From an uncultured Candidatus Saccharibacteria bacterium (GTDB taxonomy: Bacteria > Patescibacteriota > Doudnabacteria > UBA920), in NCBI GenBank assembly GCA_964561085.1, contig CAZLNP010000003.1:72310-136309 (forward strand): DNA of 64,000 nucleotides. The letters are read 5' to 3'. The position numbers and the translations under genes were made by a program. This document shows, piece after piece, positions 6,938 through 52,155 of the stretch; within the stretch, counting starts at the first letter, position 1, and each line of letters starts with the position of its first letter. The notes beneath the pieces are model-generated. The model was not told the origin of the DNA. It made no database searches and saw nothing but the letters and a program-made list of their open reading frames with translations.

Positions 6938-8092
6938 CTATATTAAGAAGTAAAATAGGCTGAAAATTGCAGCGACAATAAACAGGGCAACGAAACTGCC
7001 AGTTGCCACAAAAACTACAATCCCGACTAATGCCGCTAGCATTTTGCCAATTGCTAACATTTGTTCAAACCCAATCACATACGGCAATATGTGGGTTTGT
7101 GCTGCTCTATCATATGTAAGCGCTGATACAGGAATAAATACCAGACTTTTTGTTGTGCGAGACAAAGTATCAGTTATGAAAGCAGCGAAAGGAGAAACCA
7201 CCGGAATTCTTGCCAACCAAGTTAATGCATAAATTACAGTCCCCGCACGGAGCAAAGATTCCTTGCTGTGTCTATCTGTATAAAAACCAATGTACAAAGC
7301 CAAGCCTGTTGCAACTAAAGTAGCTATGGTCACCAATGTTCCAACATCTTGATAGCTAGCAACTATTGTATACATGAAAATTGGCCAAATTGTGTAAACT
7401 AATAGTTCTTCACCGAAGCCGAAGTACCCCAGAAATTTTAACGGATACTTTTTATATAAATCTAGTGTGTCATGGAAACGATATGGCTTTGGAATAAATA
7501 CTTCCTTTGACCAAAGGATAGGAATTGCAGAACAGAAATAGACAATTGATGCGATTACAAACACTACCTCTATTCCGAAATAAGTCGATAAAAATCCACC
7601 AAGCATTGGACCAATGATTTGCATCAAATTCATTATCGCGTACATGAAGCTGAATTCACGACCGCGTTGCTTTTTGTCTGAGAATCTGGCCAAGCTAGCG
7701 TGAAGGGCAGGCCAATACAATGTCTTTTGAATGGCCAAACTAATCGCAGCAGGAATCAACATTAGTACATATTGCTCAGAATATAGAATTAGGAACCAGA
7801 ATATAATCTGGAATGGAATGCTGAAGAATATCGAATGCGCATAGCCAAACTTAGCCATAATTTTCCCACCAAATGGAATAATTAGAGCATACATAGAGTA
7901 AATAGCAGCGGTAAACATCAACACTTCTGGAACCGACAAACCAACTACATGATACAAAAAAATTGGCTCAAACAAGGTGATGATTGCTTGTGCCAAGTTC
8001 CCTATTGCCACCGATTCATACAGGTGTTCAATTTCTTTTTTTATTTTCGAAGCAAAGTAATGCGGTAAATGAAAGTGTTCAGTAAAAGTCAT
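6938..8092 (-). CDS. Multi-pass membrane protein, possibly MFS-type transporter
   Basis: 384 aa, ~11-12 hydrophobic segments; no diagnostic motif recognised. Confidence 0.4.
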   Translation of the reverse strand: MTFTEHFHLPHYFASKIKKEIEHLYESVAIGNLAQAIITLFEPIFLYHVVGLSVPEVLMFTAAIYSMYALIIPFGGKIMAKFGYAHSIFFSIPFQIIFWFLILYSEQYVLMLIPAAISLAIQKTLYWPALHASLARFSDKKQRGREFSFMYAIMNLMQIIGPMLGGFLSTYFGIEVVFVIASIVYFCSAIPILWSKEVFIPKPYRFHDTLDLYKKYPLKFLGYFGFGEELLVYTIWPIFMYTIVASYQDVGTLVTIATLVATGLALYIGFYTDRHSKESLLRAGTVIYALTWLARIPVVSPFAAFITDTLSRTTKSLVFIPVSALTYDRAAQTHILPYVIGFEQMLAIGKMLAALVGIVVFVATGSFVALFIVAAIFSLFYFLI

Positions 8093-44506: not shown

Positions 44507-44998
44507 ATGCCTAAAGTTAACTGTAAAATTTGCAATTCTCCATTTTATGCCAAACCAAGACATTTAAAAATTGGTTGTGGAAAGTATTGTTCAAAAAAAT
44601 GCCAAAATACTTCTCAAAGAACTGGGTTTTGGACAGAATGCAATAACTGCGGCAAGTCAATATGGAAAACTCCCAGAGATGTTAGAGATTCAAAAAGTGG
44701 AAAATTCTTTTGCAGTAAAAGTTGCCAGACAGTTTGGAGAAACAAGCATTATAGCGAAACCAAACATCCTATGTGGAAAAATGGCATTAACACATACCGT
44801 AACATATTACTTAGAAGTAAGGTTCCTGTGATGTGTTTAAAATGTAAATTGAAAGATAAAAGAATTCTAATTGTTCACCATCTTGACAAAAATAGAACAA
44901 ATAATTCTTTGGGCAATTTAGTTTGGTTATGTGCAAATTGTCATATGTTAATTCATGCTGATAATAAAGAAATGAAAAGTTTTTTAAAGAATATATAA
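44507..44998 (+). CDS. HNH homing-type endonuclease with N-terminal paired zinc ribbons
   Basis: C-terminal HHLDKNRTNN...NLVWLCANCHMLIH HNH motif; duplicated CxxC...YAKP..GKYCSKxCQ N-terminal modules. Confidence 0.8.
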   Translation: MPKVNCKICNSPFYAKPRHLKIGCGKYCSKKCQNTSQRTGFWTECNNCGKSIWKTPRDVRDSKSGKFFCSKSCQTVWRNKHYSETKHPMWKNGINTYRNILLRSKVPVMCLKCKLKDKRILIVHHLDKNRTNNSLGNLVWLCANCHMLIHADNKEMKSFLKNI

Positions 44999-45005
44999 AT
45001 ATTAT

Positions 45006-45080
45006 GGTGGCTGTGGTGTAGTGGTAACACAATTCTCTGTGGCAGAATTATCGGGGGTTCGATTCCCCTCAGTCACCCCA
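45006..45080 (+). tRNA. tRNA-His (anticodon GTG) with encoded G-1 and CCA
   Basis: G-1 + GTGGCTG acceptor pairing with CAGTCAC, discriminator C73; anticodon stem ATTCT/AGAAT, loop CTGTGGC. Confidence 0.85.
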
Positions 45081-45231: not shown

Positions 45232-45801
45232 ATGCAAAACGAATTGGAAGCTAAATTTCTATCAATTGATAAGGAAGAAGTTAGAGTCAAGCTAACTAGT
45301 GCTGGGTACACTCTCTCGACGCCTGAGTATACCATGCGAAGAAAAACTTTTGACTTCTCAAAAGTAGATCCTGGAAAAAATAAATGGGGTCGTGTTAGAC
45401 AAGAATCTGACAAAACAACAATGACTATCAAAGAAGTCAGAGGTGAAGGTGTTAATGATACTTTTGAAGTAGAGCTAGTTGTTAATGATTTTGATATTGC
45501 AGCCAACTTCTTCGAAGCATGTAATATCCACGCAAAAGCCTTTCAAGAAAATATGCGTGAGGTATGGAAAAAAGATAATGTCGAGGTAACCATTGATACC
45601 TGGCCAGGATTAAAGCCATTTATAGAAATTGAAGGTCCTACCGAAGAAAGCCTAAAAGAAGCTAGTGCGGAATTGGAGTTTGATTATGCAATAGCATCAT
45701 TTGGAAGCATCGATATGATTTATGAAAAAGAACTTGGCATCCCTGCTTCAGAAATAATTAAATTGCCAGAAATTACATTCGCGTCAGTACCAACTAAATA
45801 A
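45232..45801 (+). CDS. CYTH-domain protein (CyaB-like triphosphate tunnel metalloenzyme)
   Basis: N-terminal ELEAKF (ExExK) signature; 189 aa beta-barrel-like alternating pattern. Confidence 0.7.
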   Translation: MQNELEAKFLSIDKEEVRVKLTSAGYTLSTPEYTMRRKTFDFSKVDPGKNKWGRVRQESDKTTMTIKEVRGEGVNDTFEVELVVNDFDIAANFFEACNIHAKAFQENMREVWKKDNVEVTIDTWPGLKPFIEIEGPTEESLKEASAELEFDYAIASFGSIDMIYEKELGIPASEIIKLPEITFASVPTK

Positions 45802-45813
45802 TTACCAAAATGA

Positions 45814-45842
45814 AAAGCCGTGGAATTTCTTCTACGGCTTTT
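45814..45842. terminator. Bidirectional terminator between CYTH gene and radical SAM operon
   Basis: AAAGCCGT-12 nt loop-ACGGCTTT with flanking A/T runs. Confidence 0.55.
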
Positions 45843-46845
45843 ATCTTTTAAGTTGAACTAAAGTTGGTTTGATCGGCGGGTATGTGTACTCACCAGGTTC
45901 TTCCATGCACCACCCTTCAGATTGCCCAGGGGTCCTGCAGTTAAAATTACAGCGAGGTACAACCGTCAAGCGAAGCGATGTCTTGGCAAGCAAGTTATCG
46001 ATTTCGATTTCTCCGATCTTGCTTTTTATAGCAGCCTTGAATTGCGCATCGTCGTCATCAAATTCGGGGACTGAGAATCCTATGTCCCTTCTTAGATAGC
46101 AAAAATACATTTCAAGTTTCGGATCAACACGTGCGTAATCACCAAACTTTTCTTCGCAGACAAGTTTGTGATCACAGGAATTACAAGGCTCAACAGATCT
46201 ATCCAACTTATCTCCCAGCTTCACTTCAACCATGCCACCGCCAGAAAGATGAAACCGTAAGCGTTTTCTTCCTAAGTCTTTCTTCACCCGTTGAATGAGA
46301 GAAGTCTTAGAGAGCACTTCCGATTTGATCACTGGTCGCCAGTCCTGATATTGAGACTGATAATTTGAGTCGCTACTTGGAGTCCAAAGCAAAGTGAATA
46401 GTTTCAATCTGCTCTTATAGGTATTTAAGAGAGATAACTGCTCGGGAATGTCTGAGGTAAAACCTTTTAACAATACTCGATTGAAATCAACCTTGATACC
46501 TAAATCCAAAGCCTCGGTAACTCCTGAGATAAACTTTTGGTAATCTCCATAACCACCTGAAATCTCTTTAAAGATTAGTGGGTCTGTAGAATGCCAACTC
46601 GTTCGAATCAGGGATAACCCAGCCGTCTGTAGCTTTTTCGCATAAGCTTTAAGCAATTGCCCGTTTGTGGTCATCGAGGTTATAAAACCCCGATCGACAA
46701 GGGCTTTCACAACATCGTCAATATGATAATTGCCGTCTCGCCATAAAAGTGGTTCTAACGCACCGATCTCGACATTAGGGTTACCCCCAATACTCAACCA
46801 GTTATCAGCCACTTTCATTATATTTTCAAACGAAAGTGGTTTCAT
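45841..46845 (-). CDS. MoaA-like radical SAM protein, apparently circularly permuted (Cys-motif strand at C-terminus)
   Basis: N-terminal part aligns to MoaA from the GGEPLL element onward (GALEPLL, TNGQLL, SWHS); CX2C...C auxiliary-cluster-like region CNSCDHKLVC...RVDPKLEMYFC; C-terminal LRLTVVPRCNFNCRTPGQSEGWCMEEPGE resembles the MoaA N-terminal [21 protein letters not shown]. Confidence 0.6.
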   Translation of the reverse strand: MKPLSFENIMKVADNWLSIGGNPNVEIGALEPLLWRDGNYHIDDVVKALVDRGFITSMTTNGQLLKAYAKKLQTAGLSLIRTSWHSTDPLIFKEISGGYGDYQKFISGVTEALDLGIKVDFNRVLLKGFTSDIPEQLSLLNTYKSRLKLFTLLWTPSSDSNYQSQYQDWRPVIKSEVLSKTSLIQRVKKDLGRKRLRFHLSGGGMVEVKLGDKLDRSVEPCNSCDHKLVCEEKFGDYARVDPKLEMYFCYLRRDIGFSVPEFDDDDAQFKAAIKSKIGEIEIDNLLAKTSLRLTVVPRCNFNCRTPGQSEGWCMEEPGEYTYPPIKPTLVQLKR

Positions 46846-47423
46846 GCGTTTACCCTCCCAGCAATATGCTTTTTGATCAACTCAACAGTTTCTAATGCCG
46901 TCACAACACCCGTGTCAATGTAGATCAAATTAAACGAAAGAAAAACTTCGTTAACTTGATCCAAAAACGGACTATTATTTTCGAGGTTGGCATCAGGAAT
47001 GTTTCGTTTACGTGCTACGATTCGCTTGTCTCGAGTTTCTGAATCGCAGTTTAGATGAAACGCATAATCAGGTAGCAGTAGATGAGTATCAGAATGAATC
47101 AACTTCACTCTTTCATCTAATACATAATGATATGCTGCCGTTGTTGCTACGTAACGATCGGCTACAACTGGTCCTTGTTTCAAAAGATCCGTAATATGCT
47201 GGGTGTCATACTGCACAGCCATCATATAAAAACAATACCTTTCCAAAGGGCTTGCTCTCAGATCAATCTCTTTCCGTAATTCCGCGAACGCACCCGATGG
47301 TGATTTATAATATTGAAATCCCTGCTCAGCCAACAATAAAGCGGCTGTAGTTTTTCCAACACCATCTACGCCATCGAGACTTATAAATACATTTTTTTGC
47401 ATAAAGCCTCCCAGCTCATTCAA
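46842..47423 (-). CDS. tmk: Thymidylate kinase-like P-loop nucleotide kinase
   Basis: ISLDGVDGVGKTT P-loop and VVADRYVATTAAYHY (DRY motif); ATGA overlap with downstream radical SAM gene. Confidence 0.65.
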   Translation of the reverse strand: MNELGGFMQKNVFISLDGVDGVGKTTAALLLAEQGFQYYKSPSGAFAELRKEIDLRASPLERYCFYMMAVQYDTQHITDLLKQGPVVADRYVATTAAYHYVLDERVKLIHSDTHLLLPDYAFHLNCDSETRDKRIVARKRNIPDANLENNSPFLDQVNEVFLSFNLIYIDTGVVTALETVELIKKHIAGRVNA

Positions 47424-47904
47424 TGGATAAAATCAGAAGTTCTCTTTTGGAGTTCTTCAATCTTACCGTAACCTCATCATCTTCATGCTTACCGATTAAA
47501 GCACTTGATATTGGGGTGCCCAATGAAATAACCGTTATAGTTTTTCCATCATCTTCGTGTTCAGTTCCTCCGCCCGCTGGCAAAAGGAAATAATAAAGCC
47601 TTTCTCCTGAATTACAATCTTCCAGCTTGATTAACGCATAGAGTGAGCCATGCTCAATCTTAGGTGGATTGTTTCTCAAGACTTCCAAGGTTCCAAGTTG
47701 TTGCCGAAGTTCTGACAAATTCTTTTCAAAAGCACCGGCTAAATACTGGGCTTCTTCTTTGAACGTGTCATATCGGGACTGCATGGCTCCTTTATGAAAC
47801 CTAGATTCCTTTTCAGCTGTTTTGCGACCGGTTTCGGCTGTTTCAATTGCTGAACGAGTGGTTGCGATTATTTCTTCCAAAATCCGCAATTTTAGTTCTT
47901 GCAT
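47416..47904 (-). CDS. greA: GreA/GreB-family transcript cleavage factor
   Basis: N-terminal coiled-coil + C-terminal FKBP-like VISLGTPISSALIGKHEDDEVTV; 8-nt overlap with tmk-like gene. Confidence 0.7.
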   Translation of the reverse strand: MQELKLRILEEIIATTRSAIETAETGRKTAEKESRFHKGAMQSRYDTFKEEAQYLAGAFEKNLSELRQQLGTLEVLRNNPPKIEHGSLYALIKLEDCNSGERLYYFLLPAGGGTEHEDDGKTITVISLGTPISSALIGKHEDDEVTVRLKNSKRELLILSIE

Positions 47905-48116
47905 AAATTCTCCTTATATATGTAAAAGTAAGCCACTTAAATGTATAAATGACTTACAATTATGGGATATTTTTGTCGAATTGTCAACCGAATACAGAAT
48001 CTGTATTTTACAGTATCATTTCAGGAAAGAACCCATCCCTCTTCCCATATACCTCCCCTTGTAACTTAAATTGACAATGATATAAATACTTCTGTTTCTC
48101 TCGCCACAGTTGCCAC

Positions 48117-49260: not shown

Positions 49261-49410
49261 TGAAAATCAAAGTTGAACACCACACTTTTCCTGGAGCGCT
49301 TTGGCTAATTGGCTGGCTGTTTACAATTGGCTTTTTAGACCTTCACTTTTGGAAAGGTGTATTGGCTATCATTATCTGGCCATACTACCTAGGCATTTTC
49401 TTCCGCTAAA
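49261..49410 (+). CDS. Small hydrophobic protein (49 aa, two predicted TM; not in ORF track)
   Basis: ATG 49261, MKIKVEHHTFPGALWLIGWLFTIGFLDLHFWKGVLAIIIWPYYLGIFFR, stop 49408-49410. Confidence 0.3.
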
Positions 49411-50245
49411 TTTTTGGTAAAGCTAAAATCCAGAACAAAATTAGACCTAGAATGGCATTAATTGCTGGGAACCACCAGTAAATGGTTTTAATTTTGTGTA
49501 GGTTGATGTAAGTGTAGATCGTTGCGATTGGATACAACAGCACTAACCAAACTAAAATACTGGCGTTGAAGTTTTGGATAACTAGCACGCTAGATATAAT
49601 CCATAATACAAAACAAACTACCAGAGAAAGCTTGTGTCCTAGCACCACGGCTGTAGTAGACAGATTAGCTTTGGCATCACTTTCAATATCTGGGACTGCG
49701 GAATAGATGTGCATGCTAGCAGTCCACGCCCAAGCAGCTAACATTGCCCACACCGGTGGAACATCACCAGTTATAAAACTGTAAGCTAGGAATCCAATCA
49801 CTGCATAATGAACATTGGAAGCCGCGTCGATAACAGGCTTAGCTTTAAAGCGAAACGGATACGCGCTATAACATCCAGCTAAAGCAAGGAACAAAATCCA
49901 TAGCCACATTGTAGTTGAATTTGGCGTAAAGAATGCCAACACAATACCAAGAACAAGCGATGCGACAACCCATATAGTTAGGGCTCTGCGTTCTAACATT
50001 CTTAGACGATGTTCTTTATCGTCTTTTTTAGCGTTGAACTGATCTGTATCATCGTCGAACAAATCATTGATGCCGTAAATATAGATGTTTGCAAAGAAAA
50101 TAAAATAGACTAAATAAACTAACAACAGCGGATTAATTAAGTCAGTTAAAGTTTGCACTCCAGCCACTGCCCCAACTAAAAATGTGCCAGCTGCATAAAG
50201 CCAAAACCGAGGTCTTGAAATTTTGATTAAAGTTTTAAGGTTCAT
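49406..50245 (-). CDS. UbiA-family prenyltransferase (lycopene elongase/cyclase-like, in carotenoid operon)
   Basis: 279 aa, ~8 TM; Asp-rich motif GINDLFDDDTDQFN (NDxxDxxxD). Confidence 0.55.
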   Translation of the reverse strand: MNLKTLIKISRPRFWLYAAGTFLVGAVAGVQTLTDLINPLLLVYLVYFIFFANIYIYGINDLFDDDTDQFNAKKDDKEHRLRMLERRALTIWVVASLVLGIVLAFFTPNSTTMWLWILFLALAGCYSAYPFRFKAKPVIDAASNVHYAVIGFLAYSFITGDVPPVWAMLAAWAWTASMHIYSAVPDIESDAKANLSTTAVVLGHKLSLVVCFVLWIISSVLVIQNFNASILVWLVLLYPIATIYTYINLHKIKTIYWWFPAINAILGLILFWILALPKI

Positions 50246-50254
50246 TTGTTTAGA

Positions 50255-51313
50255 TTATTTTTCTCGTACGGCTAAATAATTTATCAAGTCTTCCATTACT
50301 ACTAATTGATTTTTATCAAAAGGTAGTTTCTTAAGTAGAGTTAATACGTTCTTCTGTTGAGCTTGTAATTCCCTCTCAGCTAACTCAGGAATACGAGCCT
50401 CTTTCATTTTTGAAATTACAAAAGCTTGTTGAGACTTAGTCATCACATTGTGAGAATTAAACAGCGTAGAAATTTTCTTTGCGTCTGATTTACTAACTTT
50501 CTTAAGAAGTCGGAAGTATAGCCAAGTTTTTTTGCGCTCACGAATGTCACCGCCAACTGACTTTCCTGTTTTTACTGTATCGCCAAATACCCCTAAGTAG
50601 TCGTCACGGAGTTGAAATATAATTCCTAAAGATTTTGCCAACTGTTGAACTTTAACTTCCATGCTTTTGGTGTACTTCCCTGCTAGAATAAGTCCTGCTA
50701 AAATTGGCAGTCCAAACGTATATCGGCCAGTCTTTTGTTCATAAATCCTCAGGCAATCTTTTTCACTTGAAGCACTCATAGTACCAGTATTAAGATCATC
50801 CATTTGTCCGAGACCAAGCAAACCCATTTCTAAGCTAAACAGCTCCACTAGTTTTGCTAGCCCTTTGTTTGTTTTAACTTTTCCAAATTCACTCATGGCC
50901 ATAAAGTAAGCAAGGATTCCGACACAGCTTGCCATACCTTCTCCATAATGAACACTCTCGGCTTTACTAGGAAGCTTGCTTAAAGCGGTGTACTGGGCAT
51001 GAATTGTAGGTTTCCCGCGGCGCAAAAGATCACGATCCATAATATCATCATGGACTAAAATACCGGAATGCATTAGCTCTAAAGCCGCACCAATTTTAAT
51101 AGCATCAGATTGAGCCTGCTTCGATTTATTCCCAGTTGCCAATACTACTAAAAGTCCACGAATCATTTTTCCAGAGACTGTAAAATTTTCTAAACGATTT
51201 AAGGCGTCGTTTGACCAAGGATATTCAGACTTTGCATATTGCTTCTGAAGCCTTATAATCTCAGAGATTTCTTTCTGAATCAGACTTTTTTTTGATATAA
51301 AAAACTTGTTCAT
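50255..51313 (-). CDS. Polyprenyl diphosphate synthase (FPP/GGPP synthase type)
   Basis: First Asp-rich motif LVHDDIMDRD (DDxxD), second FQLRDDYLGVFGD. Confidence 0.8.
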   Translation of the reverse strand: MNKFFISKKSLIQKEISEIIRLQKQYAKSEYPWSNDALNRLENFTVSGKMIRGLLVVLATGNKSKQAQSDAIKIGAALELMHSGILVHDDIMDRDLLRRGKPTIHAQYTALSKLPSKAESVHYGEGMASCVGILAYFMAMSEFGKVKTNKGLAKLVELFSLEMGLLGLGQMDDLNTGTMSASSEKDCLRIYEQKTGRYTFGLPILAGLILAGKYTKSMEVKVQQLAKSLGIIFQLRDDYLGVFGDTVKTGKSVGGDIRERKKTWLYFRLLKKVSKSDAKKISTLFNSHNVMTKSQQAFVISKMKEARIPELAERELQAQQKNVLTLLKKLPFDKNQLVVMEDLINYLAVREK

Positions 51314-52155
51314 GTAAATATAAGTTGCTTAATGGCTGTTGTCGCTATCTGTACCTTTGATGGTATTACTTTTCTTTCAAAAATAACTTGTGGGTTTTTA
51401 GAAATTTCTTCAATCGTATCGTCAAACAAATTTAGTGCTATCTTAATGGGTACCAAATAACGTGATGGAATAAAATGGAAACCGCTCTTAGCTTGCTCCC
51501 GCCACTGTTCGTAAATTTTAATTTGAGCATGAATGAATTCATTAAATTGTTCTGGCTTAGCAGTAGCCTCTGCTTTACTGACTTCAAGTAACCCAAACTT
51601 TCTAAACTCTTCTTCTGGCAAATAAATTCTCCCCAAAGAAATGTCATCTGCAACATCACGAATCATATTCATGTACTGAAAAGCTTTTCCTAAAGCCTGG
51701 GATGCTGGAAAACTAGCTTCATCAAGTTTCATAATCTTTGCCATCATCAAACCAATTACTTCAGCCGACCCATGAATGTAATGTTCAGTTTCCTCCAAAG
51801 TTGCGTAAGTAGTTTTAACTAGATCATCTTCCATTGAACCAAAAAAAGATTCAATCCATTTTTGATCAAAATTATATTCTTTTTGAAGCTTCACAAAGCT
51901 CTGGACCACTTCCGTATTTTTTTCTGAACTAAGTGATTGAGTCGCTTCCCCGTTTAGTGTGGCATAATATTCGGTTTTCAGTTGAAAATATTCATCTTTC
52001 TGAGGAGGGACGCAATCAACGAAGTCATCAAAAACTCTAACGAATGCGTATAAATCAAATACAGCCTTCTTTTCTGCAGAAGGAAAAAATAGTGACGCAG
52101 CGAAGAACGTTGTGCTGCCATTTTTAAAAATTTCGTAACTAACTGATTTGCTCAT
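51310..52155 (-). CDS. Phytoene/dehydrosqualene synthase family (CrtB/CrtM-like)
   Basis: YAFVRVFDDFVD and MIRDVADD Asp-rich motifs of squalene/phytoene synthases; 4-nt overlap with downstream gene. Confidence 0.75.
   Translation of the reverse strand: MSKSVSYEIFKNGSTTFFAASLFFPSAEKKAVFDLYAFVRVFDDFVDCVPPQKDEYFQLKTEYYATLNGEATQSLSSEKNTEVVQSFVKLQKEYNFDQKWIESFFGSMEDDLVKTTYATLEETEHYIHGSAEVIGLMMAKIMKLDEASFPASQALGKAFQYMNMIRDVADDISLGRIYLPEEEFRKFGLLEVSKAEATAKPEQFNEFIHAQIKIYEQWREQAKSGFHFIPSRYLVPIKIALNLFDDTIEEISKNPQVIFERKVIPSKVQIATTAIKQLIFT

Follow-up and report, generated by a model that had tools for sequence, protein, structure and literature searches.

A probable circularly permuted MoaA-like radical SAM enzyme encoded with a nucleotide kinase-like and a Gre-like gene in Patescibacteria

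Introduction

The usual hallmark of a radical SAM enzyme is a CX3CX2C motif in its N-terminal part. Varied cluster motifs are known from QueE (CX14CX2C), from HmdB (CX5CX2C) and from ThiC, in which a CX2CX4C domain lies at the C-terminus and the cluster-binding domain of the neighbouring subunit completes the active site. MoaA carries in addition an auxiliary cluster held by three cysteines (CX2CX13C), with an open iron site for GTP; its GTP phosphate-binding arginines include R17 and R268, within a basic set formed by R17, K69, R71, R266 and R268 (S. aureus numbering). Viperins produce 3'-deoxy-3',4'-didehydro-NTPs (ddhNTPs) and have an antiviral effect; CMPK2 and VakA are their kinase partners, and to our knowledge no Gre-like partner has been described for them. 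The genomes of Patescibacteria are very small, and no function is known for the majority of their genes. A viperin preprint describes the linkage of viperins to kinases and reports viperins fused with a triphosphatase or a cyclase domain, and circular permutation of a SAM-using fold whose spatial structure is kept has been described for the SAM-dependent methyltransferases (PMC1282579).

We analysed a window of 64,000 nucleotides from an uncultured Candidatus Saccharibacteria bacterium (contig CAZLNP010000003.1), in which the first-pass annotation had read one radical SAM gene as circularly permuted. It knew of no described family of this kind, and in the literature that we searched neither a permuted radical SAM enzyme nor the gene module in which this one is found is described.

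Results

Organization of the radical SAM gene

The gene lies at positions 45841..46845 of the window, with the minus strand as its coding strand (which refines the earlier reading), and encodes 334 residues between an ATG start and a TAA stop codon. Upstream of the ATG, an in-frame stop is found at 13 codons and further stops lie beyond; moreover, the gene shares its first 4 bases with a kinase gene (46842..47423, minus strand) that is read in a different frame. A hidden N-terminal cysteine motif is thus impossible. Pfam and NCBIfam alignments, together with the secondary structure of the model, delimit the radical SAM core as residues 3-180 (46306..46839, minus strand), which run from helix α1 to helix α6 (strands β2 to β6) without strand β1. 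The core contains the motifs GALEPLL (residues 28-34, GGE-like), TTNG (59-62) and SWHS (83-86), the last of which replaces the SLD of MoaA. The auxiliary-cluster region follows at residues 221-249 (46099..46185, minus strand), with the pattern CX2CX5CX18C (C221, C224, C230, C249) and R239; it reads C221-NSC224...C230...R239-VDPKLEMYF-C249. A linker (residues 258-289, 45979..46074, minus strand), which is helical in the model, poorly conserved, and variable and gapped in the alignment, then leads from the former C-terminal domain into the former N-terminal strand.

The terminal segment of the protein, LRLTVVPRCNFNCRTPGQSEGWCMEEPGEY, comprises strand β1 (LRLTVV) and the three-cysteine loop (residues 290-313, 45907..45978, minus strand), as placed by phmmer, by the re-ordering test described below and by the loop alignment. 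In the C-terminal stretch L291-RLTVVPR-C299-NFN-C303-RTPGQSEGW-C313-MEEPGEY, the cysteines are spaced C299-X3-C303-X9-C313 and W312 precedes the third of them; a 7-residue insertion, RTPGQSE (residues 304-310, 45916..45936, minus strand), separates the second from the third. Across the corresponding loop, the canonical relative P0249 reads CMPEEGVKFIPHDEILKFEEIEEIV. Residues 314-334, MEEPGEYTYPPIKPTLVQLKR (45844..45906, minus strand), match the MoaA loop that enters helix α1, and the new termini therefore sit in the surface loop between the cluster loop and α1: the permuted protein runs through CMEEPGEY...LVQLKR to its stop and its N-terminus begins MKPLSFENIMKV. All the elements listed in the first-pass annotation, from GALEPLL to the C-terminal cysteine segment, are present. 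In common with the radical SAM superfamily, the protein has the partial TIM-barrel fold and three conserved cysteines after β1, the third of them preceded by an aromatic residue, but it departs from the superfamily in the N-terminal placement and the CX3CX2C spacing, the loop starting at residue 299 of 334.

The C-terminal segment is the displaced N-terminus of the barrel

The radical SAM profile PF04055 matched the protein with 45 bits (cut-off 29.5), pairing residues 3-132 with profile positions 27-157 of 166. Because the match starts at position 27, the part of the profile that contains CX3CX2C has no counterpart at the N-terminus. With the archaeal MoaA model, residues 4-208 were aligned on positions 40-238 of 303. 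A phmmer search against PDB sequences gave the two parts in swapped order, residues 4-143 corresponding to MoaA 50-184 and residues 290-304 to MoaA 15-29, in agreement with the initial claim that the sequence normally found at about residues 15-45 of MoaA is at the C-terminus here. When the tail was placed first in silico, a single continuous alignment was obtained from position 10 of the MoaA model, in line with the permuted order proposed in the first-pass annotation, and the re-ordered sequence matched PF04055 from position 3 to position 157. Removal of the insert from the re-ordered protein increased the scores further, from 47.9 to 58.9 bits for PF04055 and from 91.2 to 102.3 bits for TIGR02668. 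With the insert removed, the true tail (102.3 bits with TIGR02668) was compared with nine shuffled tails, five of which retained the cysteine positions; these scored 80.1-83.5 bits, about 20 bits below the real one.

Used alone against solved structures, a tail-only profile gave marginal matches to MoaA (E 0.57) and TigE (E 1.6), and its top match was crambin, by chance (NFN-CRLPGT). This profile being too short to decide by itself, the re-ordering test with shuffles and a search of non-permuted relatives were used. The tail-only profile matched the N-termini of the non-permuted relatives with up to 28.5 bits, and the family HMM fell on these proteins in swapped order, with profile positions ~255-320 on residues 3-66 and positions 4-281 on residues 48-350. 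In the loop alignment (A4), the arginine and the three cysteines were invariant across their columns and the canonical-loop sequences showed a gap of 7 columns; this gap and the gain in score on removal of the insert bear out the proposed expansion of CX3CX2C to CX3CX9C by seven residues. We also carried out a mean-field coevolution analysis (147 sequences, ~77 effective). Terminal gaps and lineage effects produced the strongest couplings, and because these artefacts dominate, the analysis carries no usable evidence on the β1/β2 contact. Altogether, these data confirm that the order is permuted and that the tail is homologous to the N-terminus of MoaA.

The cysteines of the tail might still bind an extra cluster or a metal, the protein being a pseudo-enzyme or an iron-sulfur protein that does not use SAM. 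The non-canonical CX3CX9C spacing, the weak E-values of the tail-only profile against solved structures and a weak match (21 bits) to an NCBIfam pseudo-SAM/SPASM family speak for such a reading. However, placed where β1 belongs, the tail exceeds the cysteine-preserving shuffles by the margin given above and thus behaves in scoring like the cluster loop of a radical SAM enzyme, which lends no support to the scenario in which it would be part of an auxiliary domain. It bears the strand signature LRxxV-xx-CNFxC, the aromatic residue before the third cysteine and an arginine at the position of MoaA R17; the same expanded loop is N-terminal in non-permuted relatives; GALEP and TTNG are conserved and S83 is invariant; and a separate four-cysteine auxiliary site exists. 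A pseudo-enzyme is therefore distinctly improbable, and the permuted protein presumably cleaves SAM.

The permuted layout is conserved

We collected 165 homologues (~35 clusters at 50% identity), mostly from Patescibacteria and some from Acidobacteria and Gemmatimonadota MAGs. Several of the source databases label them MoaA or cyclic pyranopterin phosphate synthase. The C-terminal motif CX3[C/S]X9C was present in 117 of the 120 homologues checked, which were drawn from NCBI, ENA, JGI and Logan assemblies, so that more than a hundred uncultured bacteria share it; the remaining three were 240, 258 and 310 residues long instead of the usual ~335. None of the 120 had CX3CX2C in its N-terminal region, and the only such string among them was in the auxiliary-cluster region of P0108.

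Could the layout come from an error of assembly, a frameshift or gene calling? One related MAG has the gene split over two contigs, with unrelated DNA upstream, and a few loci contain frameshifts or an internal stop. Against this, the same architecture of 330-340 residues recurs in those 117 homologues, found in all four sources and on contigs of up to 356 kb, and at the locus itself the gene is closed on both sides, by the in-frame stops and the overlapping upstream gene at its start and by a terminator hairpin after its stop. The many independent assemblies thus contradict the mis-assembly scenario raised in the first-pass annotation, and we find an artefact scarcely credible. The homologue search proposed there has instead returned the same layout.

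In the loop, C299 and C313 are invariant, and C303 and W312 are at least 90% conserved. Residues P306 and G307 of the insert were invariant in a 37-sequence alignment and at least 90% conserved in a 114-sequence alignment. As for the auxiliary cysteines, all four were invariant in the smaller alignment; in the larger one C230 and C249 were invariant, and C221 and C224 were at least 90% conserved. The SAM-contact positions in GALEP and TTNG are strongly conserved.

The predicted structure favours packing in cis

A MoaA-like fold was confidently predicted for the permuted protein: the AF2 monomer model had a pLDDT of 90.4 and a pTM of 0.89, and Foldseek aligned it to MoaA with a TM of 0.61. The best fold matches are twitch or SPASM enzymes (MoaA, BlsE, AbmM, SuiB, PqqE, SkfB and anSME), and, as in this subgroup, a cysteine-rich region (221-249) follows β6/α6. 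The order of elements in the model starts with helix 6-18, strand 24-27, helix 42-51 and strand 55-59; the linker forms helices 259-262, 266-277 and 282-288, and strand 290-293 comes behind them.

An alternative is that the tail works in trans, each subunit completing the barrel of its partner in a domain-swapped dimer. The segment follows a flexible, poorly conserved linker of ~30 residues, the AF2 model is of a monomer only, and ThiC provides a parallel for an active site shared between subunits. On the other hand, the monomer is confidently modelled through the tail, the 10-residue blocks having pLDDT values of 90 (281-290), 95 (291-300) and 89 (301-310), which suggests a self-contained fold and counts against the trans arrangement; in addition, joining the termini restores the usual topology of a single chain. 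We consider the dimer unlikely; the tail presumably packs in cis as β1.

Permutation and loop insertion are separable

Three architectures were found among the relatives: non-permuted with a long loop, permuted with a long loop, and permuted with a canonical loop. In the non-permuted long-loop relatives the xPGxxxxW insert is likewise present, there in the N-terminal loop, and a second permuted group has a canonical CX3CX2C at the C-terminus. Since each occurs without the other, the permutation and the 7-residue insert are separable. The four-cysteine auxiliary pattern is also present in the non-permuted and in the canonical-loop relatives. In a neighbour-joining tree of the core only, which is a crude one, all permuted proteins formed one clade with the canonical-loop permuted group at its base, and the long-loop non-permuted group was placed elsewhere. 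This tree supports a single origin of the permuted proteins, and the shared xPGxxxxW pattern makes the long-loop inserts of permuted and non-permuted proteins look homologous. A search of IMG/VR, as a check for viral origin, returned no relatives. One of the non-permuted long-loop genes, P0166, adjoins a PfkB kinase gene and two others, P0163 and P0176, are on very short contigs; none of the three has a kinase, Gre-like or CYTH neighbour of the kind described below, and because no module neighbours are shared their context is uninformative on function.

The gene belongs to a conserved module

The overlapping kinase gene (PF02223, E 1.1e-12) encodes a thymidylate kinase-like NMP kinase, which PADLOC models relate to PDC-M51B (E 1.1e-23) and VakA (E 9.8e-19); 22 of the 23 genome loci have this gene directly before the radical SAM gene. 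All 22 also have a Gre-factor-like gene, here at 47416..47904 (minus strand, 162 residues), which is the first of a three-gene operon. Its product matches PF01272 (E 4e-9), TIGR01462 (E 6.7e-10, far below the cut-off of that model) and E. coli GreA (BLASTP E 2e-7), and its motif SRYDTFKEEAQ is conserved. From the gene layout, the radical SAM gene is translationally coupled to the kinase gene and co-transcribed with the Gre-like paralogue. A candidate promoter, TTGACA-17-CATAAT (11 of 12 consensus positions), lies upstream of the Gre-like gene at 47959..47987 on the minus strand; it was found by consensus scan only, and the total of promoter-like sites in the region is not above that expected from shuffles.

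Facing the radical SAM gene in convergent orientation is a CYTH gene (45232..45801, plus strand; PF01928 E 3.2e-6, TIGR00318 E 4e-8) for a triphosphate tunnel metalloenzyme, whose N-terminal ELEAK fits the ExExK signature. Between the two genes, a terminator scan and the sequence itself point to a 13-bp hairpin with A and T runs (45813..45842, no strand assigned), which is likely to be a bidirectional terminator. The CYTH protein is 60-67% identical among distant loci. Its gene adjoins in loci of the Patescibacteria type and is absent from those of Acidobacteria and Gemmatimonadota, and it is retained at loci with a decayed radical SAM gene; for this last reason CYTH may stand outside the pathway. 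The Gre-like protein, the NMP kinase, the permuted enzyme and usually CYTH form a conserved module found mainly in Patescibacteria. Among the PADLOC models there is none for the radical SAM enzyme or the Gre-like protein.

In two loci outside Patescibacteria, genes for a 2TM effector and Cas10/CARF proteins adjoin the module; a defence-island context was seen in these two loci only. Soil bacteria carry the module in a three-gene form that is mobile.

The permuted protein is MoaA-like in fold only

We then compared the protein with MoaA, since it could be the MoaA (GTP 3',8-cyclase) of the organism itself in an odd layout: MoaA gives its best sequence and structure matches, databases give its homologues that name, and residues are kept at two of the phosphate-binding positions. 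R292 falls at the position of MoaA R17 (phmmer and loop alignment), and R239 is separated from C249 by the same spacing that separates R268 from C278 in MoaA. Yet the scores fall far short of the MoaA equivalog cut-offs, with 86.1 versus 325.25 bits for TIGR02668, 68 versus 231 for NF001199 and 58.7 versus 284 for TIGR02666, and neither the permuted family nor the two related groups reached the cut-off of any NCBIfam model. The auxiliary site has four cysteines (CX2CX5CX18C) where MoaA has three. The GG tail of MoaA is missing: the permuted enzyme ends ...TLVQLKR, whereas the same search found canonical relatives with ...IGG at the end, and a C-terminal GG tail is impossible because of the permuted layout. 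N24 and E26 stand where MoaA has K69 and R71, and R266 is without counterpart; with these replacements and the fourth auxiliary cysteine, substrate binding must be unlike that of MoaA. The neighbours are kinase, Gre-like and CYTH genes, and the recovered gene lists of the loci contain no Pfam-annotated molybdopterin-synthesis gene. It is thus highly improbable that the gene is a MoaA, from which (structures 1TV7, 1TV8 and 2FB3) the permuted enzyme differs in order, in its CX3CX9C loop and in its gene neighbours. The "MoaA-like" of the first-pass annotation holds for the fold only.

Discussion

Taken together, these results make it very probable that the gene is a genuine, conserved and circularly permuted MoaA-like (twitch-type) member of the radical SAM superfamily. 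The chain starts at α1 and proceeds through β2 to β6, the four-cysteine auxiliary domain and a helical linker of about 30 residues; β1 and the three-cysteine loop (C299, C303 and C313, with W312 as the aromatic residue) come last, and this loop, with its 7-residue insertion (xPGxxxx) that also occurs in non-permuted relatives, is predicted to hold the SAM-cleaving [4Fe-4S] cluster. Joining the ends would give the normal MoaA order, with no part missing or doubled.

The catalytic-cluster strand and loop of a radical SAM enzyme can therefore move to the opposite end of the chain and be stretched by seven residues. Because the loop has moved and is stretched, annotation by motif or profile recognises no more than a truncated or "MoaA-like" protein; the homologues that source databases name MoaA fall outside the MoaA criteria examined here. 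The three architectures constitute a natural experiment on how a barrel can be re-connected and on loop length in relation to cluster and SAM binding, and they would be useful in enzyme engineering and as structure-prediction benchmarks.

As to function, the module context suggests a nucleotide-modifying role. Coupling to the kinase, co-transcription with the Gre-like gene, the facing CYTH enzyme and the retention of R292 and R239 lead us to infer that the substrate would be a nucleoside triphosphate or a phosphorylated nucleotide related to one, while the Gre-factor paralogue would act at the secondary channel of RNA polymerase. The likeliest kind of product seems to us a modified nucleotide comparable to the ddhNTPs of viperin, a suggestion that we offer tentatively. 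Bolder, and in our view rather doubtful, is the idea that this is both the first natural permutant of the radical SAM barrel and the catalytic core of an undescribed nucleotide system of three to four genes (NMP kinase, permuted enzyme, dedicated Gre paralogue and, as an option, CYTH), making a modified nucleotide aimed at transcription. The Gre-like factor would then either shield the RNA polymerase of the host against this product or work together with the product at the secondary channel, and the whole would amount to an immunity or regulatory module of the viperin kind that arose independently, on the MoaA side of the family, and is widespread in Patescibacteria. The conserved pairing of a viperin-type kinase, a Gre paralogue and a triphosphate enzyme points to unexplored nucleotide chemistry.

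Comparison with known systems

With viperins, the permuted enzyme shares the linkage to a nucleotide kinase, the VakA-like gene lying upstream. The PADLOC pVip models match it with E 3e-6, over residues 31-153 only, and its score with the viperin model NF038283 is 17 bits, where the cut-off is 180. Viperin lacks an auxiliary cluster and has the canonical CX3CX2C at the N-terminus; the permuted enzyme is the opposite on both counts. BlsE (7VOB) and AbmM (8WM2), twitch enzymes that act on nucleotide-linked sugars, differ from it in having canonical order and loop, and we found no family match to them at the sequence level. The permuted SAM-dependent methyltransferases are a likeness in layout, but theirs is a Rossmann-type fold and their chemistry is unrelated. 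QueE, HmdB and ThiC provide precedents for variable cysteine spacing and, in the case of ThiC, for a cluster element located C-terminal to the barrel. In QueE and HmdB, however, the insertion is N-terminal and lies between the first and second cysteines, whereas in the permuted enzyme it lies between the second and third; and while the cluster domain of ThiC is a separate domain, the permuted enzyme has relocated the β1 strand and loop of the barrel itself.

Results

The permuted radical SAM gene lies at 45841..46845 on the minus strand and runs from an ATG start to a TAA stop, encoding 334 residues. Reading upstream in frame, we met a stop 13 codons 5' of the ATG and several more beyond it, and the preceding gene (46842..47423) shows a four-base overlap with the start codon in a different frame; no longer N-terminus is therefore possible. 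Every motif that the first-pass annotation had listed for this ORF was found in the translated protein, namely GALEPLL (residues 28-34), TTNG (59-62), SWHS (83-86), the auxiliary-cluster region C221-NS-C224 ... C230 ... R239-VDPKLEMYF-C249, and the C-terminal segment LRLTVVPR-C299-NFN-C303-RTPGQSEGW-C313-MEEPGEY.

The Pfam radical SAM model aligned residues 3-132 with profile positions 27-157 of 166 (45 bits, cut-off 29.5), and the archaeal MoaA model aligned residues 4-208 with positions 40-238 of 303. The part of both profiles that covers strand beta-1 and the CX3CX2C loop had no counterpart at the N-terminus. With phmmer against PDB sequences, two segments were obtained in swapped order: query residues 4-143 matched Staphylococcus aureus MoaA 50-184, and residues 290-304 (SLRLTVVPRCNFNCR) matched MoaA 15-29 (DLRLSVTDRCNFRCD). 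We then transferred residues 282-334 to the N-terminal end in silico. The re-ordered protein gave one unbroken alignment, starting at position 10 in the MoaA models and at position 3 in PF04055. The TIGR02668 score rose from 86.1 bits (native) to 91.2 (re-ordered) and 102.3 (re-ordered without the 7-residue insert), and the PF04055 score from 45 to 47.9 and 58.9 bits. In nine control constructs the moved segment was shuffled, with the Cys positions retained in five. The controls scored 80.1-83.5 bits with TIGR02668 (compare 102.3 with the real tail), 61.9-64.9 with NF001199 (79.7) and 50.3-57.6 with TIGR02666 (77.5), meaning that the tail is worth about 15-25 bits over three correctly spaced Cys alone. 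HMM and pairwise alignments to MoaA (TIGR02668, PF04055, phmmer) thus confirm the permuted order, and the claim of a circular permutation with the Cys strand at the C-terminus is supported by the profile and phmmer matches, the re-ordering and the shuffled controls.

Searched against all PDB sequences, a tail-only profile of 51 positions gave E-values of 0.57 for MoaA and 1.6 for a second radical SAM enzyme, and crambin outranked these real radical SAM proteins (E 0.024). The loop NFNCRxPGT (45916-45936, residues 300-313) is close to crambin residues 10-31. We judged this likeness a chance match, the profile being too short on its own, and it is a warning for short Cys-rich profiles generally.

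We compared the ends of the protein (C-terminal end CMEEPGEYTYPPIKPTLVQLKR, N-terminal start MKPLSFENIMKV) with the stretch downstream of the third Cys in a canonical relative, P0249 (CMPEEGVKFIPHDEILKFEEIEEIV). This comparison places the new termini within the loop that normally leads into alpha-1; judged from these sequences, the break point is clean, with no residues lost or doubled relative to the canonical order. The new join between the old protein ends is residues 258-289, a variable helical stretch in the alignment. The AlphaFold2 model, built from a 114-sequence alignment, had a mean pLDDT of 90.4 and a pTM of 0.89. It begins with helix 6-18 (alpha-1), followed by strands 24-27, 55-59, 79-83, 118-126 and 146-151 (beta-2 to beta-6) and their helices, then by a small sheet (181-209), the Cys-rich region, helices 259-288, and strand 290-293 leading into the three-Cys loop. 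Ten-residue blocks of pLDDT were 90 (281-290) and 95 (291-300). On the permutation reading, residues 290-296 would lie beside beta-2. A sequential structural alignment to MoaA covered 251 residues, the part that is collinear with MoaA.

From about 5.8 billion proteins we recovered 165 homologues, nearly all of 330-340 residues and 46-90% identical to the query. The same permutation was sought in relatives, and CX3[C/S]X9C stood at the C-terminus in 117 of the 120 homologues listed, which come from NCBI, ENA, JGI and Logan assemblies; the other three are shorter than usual (240, 258 and 310 residues). None of those listed had CX3CX2C in the N-terminal region, the sole such string falling in the auxiliary-cluster region of P0108. 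The layout is therefore a family trait and not an accident. In the 114-sequence alignment C299, N300, C313, C230 and C249 were invariant, C221, C224, C303, P306, G307, W312 and R292 were at least 90% conserved, and core residues at this level include E31, P32, T59, N61, R81, S83, W84, H85, N122 and K148. With one GTDB genome per species, the family was present in 31 loci. Most belong to Patescibacteria MAGs (labelled Saccharibacteria, Paceibacterota, Peribacteria, Adlerbacteria, Kerfeldbacteria or Doudnabacteria), and a few to Acidobacteria, Gemmatimonadota and one 'Gammaproteobacteria' MAG. At 89-92% identity, the nearest match was a MAG labelled uncultured Candidatus Saccharibacteria, and the window therefore probably derives from a close relative of it. 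No member was found among IMG/VR viral contigs.

When 1.84 billion cluster representatives were searched with a profile, 50 matches fell below 1e-30 and 631 below 1e-10. We sorted the top 150 by position and spacing of the Cys loop into four kinds: (a) the permuted family, with a C-terminal loop of mostly X9 and occasionally X8, X10 or X13 spacing; (b) non-permuted MoaA-like proteins with a long CX3CX8-13C loop in the ordinary N-terminal place, e.g. VRLLVNEVCNYSCSFPGTGCKWCHEDG and CNYSCSFPGTGCKWCHEDG (P0159, P0162, P0163, P0166, P0167, P0171, P0176, P0180, P0182, P0184, P0193 and P0267 among them; locus L008 1931-2959); (c) permuted proteins with a canonical CX3CX2C at the C-terminus, e.g. IRATITSKCNFKCFFCHADG (P0164, P0165, P0169, P0170, P0186; locus L009 6001-7077); and (d) ordinary MoaA-like proteins with an N-terminal CX3CX2C and IGG at the C-terminal end. 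On group (b) the family HMM matched in swapped order, positions about 255-320 on residues 3-66 and positions 4-281 on residues 48-350, and the tail-only profile scored up to 28.5 bits on the N-termini, covering the whole strand-loop unit. In an alignment of the loops, one row of which is a MoaA-like consensus composed by hand and not a real sequence, the Arg and the three Cys were invariant, a single 7-column gap divided long-loop from canonical-loop sequences, and the insert read xPGxxxx in permuted and non-permuted proteins alike. The annotated 7-residue insertion that gives CX3CX9C is thus real; it is not tied to the permutation, the two traits being separable. The three non-MoaA groups have in common a four-Cys auxiliary motif, CX2CX5C...C, and none of them reached the NCBIfam cut-offs.

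In a crude neighbour-joining tree of the shared core only (profile positions 20-262), all permuted proteins formed one clade with group (c) basal, which fits a single permutation event. The insert may have been lost in group (c) or gained twice, both being compatible with the tree. One group (b) protein adjoins a PfkB kinase. The neighbours of P0165 (a DegT-type aminotransferase, an NTP transferase, an AIR-synthase-like and an inositol-phosphatase-like protein) suggest a sugar-nucleotide pathway.

The radical SAM gene closes a run of three minus-strand genes whose stops and starts overlap. The first (47416..47904) encodes a Gre-factor-like protein (PF01272, E 4e-9) with about 26% identity, across 124 columns, to an approximate E. 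coli GreA sequence, and the second (46842..47423) a thymidylate-kinase-like NMP kinase with PADLOC matches to PDC-M51B (E 1e-23) and to VakA, viperin-associated kinase (E 1e-18). The Gre-like gene is preceded by a promoter-like site close to consensus, and a hairpin comes after the radical SAM gene; facing the operon is a CYTH gene (45232..45801) with an ExExK signature. In alignments, a conserved SRYDTFKEEAQ of the Gre-like proteins falls on the acidic coiled-coil tip of GreA, in place of GDLKENAEY. The tip motif of this paralogue, in the window and in the Gre-like ORFs of L001-L039, is HKGAMQSRYDTFKEEAQ, with a subgroup having APGAMQSHSDTTKWQ. Elsewhere in the window, UbiA prenyltransferase, polyprenyl synthetase and squalene/phytoene synthase genes, adjacent on the minus strand, form an isoprenoid cluster (49406-52155) in a genome that is probably of Patescibacteria, and a Cys-rich 163-residue protein carrying an HNH endonuclease motif (PF13392, slightly under cut-off) is encoded immediately before tRNA-His (45007-45080; whole region 44507-45080).

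Across genomes, 23 loci contain the 5' end of the radical SAM gene; in 22 of them the kinase gene lay directly upstream, and all 22 also had the Gre-like gene, which is kept with the other two outside Patescibacteria as well. The exception, L031, is a contig that ends inside the radical SAM gene and has a reverse-transcriptase gene upstream. In this MAG, the closest to the window, the radical SAM gene is divided between contigs L031 and L023, and at L031 2785-4176 the reverse-transcriptase gene (YADD motif) and a 133-residue ORF stand where the kinase and Gre-like genes are expected; this may be a chimeric assembly or an element of the diversity-generating or retron-like type. The CYTH gene adjoins in Patescibacteria-type loci and is 60-67% identical even where radical SAM identity is 47%. 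The modules of Acidobacteria and Gemmatimonadota lack CYTH and run kinase, radical SAM, Gre-like, and their surroundings look mobile or defensive: a PycTM Pycsar/CBASS-type 2TM effector adjoins the module (L006 7614-8264, E 3e-31), genes for a Cas10-like protein and a CARF-PD-(D/E)xK nuclease lie upstream of it (L035 150-3670), and ORFs resemble by eye a relaxase, an SRAP peptidase and an ATP-dependent DNA ligase (L029 729-3113 and 7038-10059).

Several MAGs carry 3' remnants of the permuted gene without a start codon, beginning from residue about 205, 233, 243 or 293. Remnant or decayed copies are at L034 4989-5384, L036 4983-5309, L038 2449-2766, L040 5001-5114, L033 4941-5951 (frameshifts) and L012 4968-5999 (internal stop). 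Remnant loci gave no kinase or Gre-like matches except a Gre-like ORF in L036, and the CYTH gene is intact beside them except in L036. Because remnants lie beside intact CYTH genes and other copies carry frameshifts or a stop, the module is dispensable, and it is being lost in some lineages. On the 121-kb contig L001, whose homologue is 73% identical, the kinase is read as two overlapping ORFs of 94 and 99 residues (7477-8041), an apparent frameshift.

Discussion

The fold is that of a radical SAM enzyme, and presumably so is the chemistry. To our knowledge, its connectivity and loop length have no precedent. Full-text literature searches that covered few subscription-journal papers turned up no account of a radical SAM enzyme with a circular permutation, of a radical SAM loop spaced CX3CX9C or of the module gene set, and Pfam, NCBIfam and PADLOC have no model for the permuted family.

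A preprint on the evolution of viperins reports linkage to a kinase in 12% of the bacterial ones, and also triphosphatase or cyclase domains fused to viperin (10.1101/2023.09.13.557418). From the gene neighbours and this viperin-kinase precedent we infer that the permuted enzyme would have a phosphorylated nucleotide as its substrate, with an NTP the likeliest; genomic context likewise suggests that its product would bear on transcription via the Gre-like factor. R292 and R239 are at the positions of R17 and R268, phosphate-binding residues of MoaA.

A viperin identity was rejected because the protein scores 17 bits where the cut-off is 180. The reading of the gene as MoaA-like stands as regards the alignment to MoaA; the protein itself is not a MoaA. 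Its NCBIfam equivalog scores are a quarter of the MoaA cut-offs, and MoaA K69 and R71 are replaced by N24 and E26 (phmmer alignment). The permutation reading is supported and refined, with the insert separable from the permutation. The auxiliary site of MoaA has three Cys, whereas the permuted enzyme has four, and the C-terminal GG tail of canonical MoaA-like relatives is impossible in the permuted layout.
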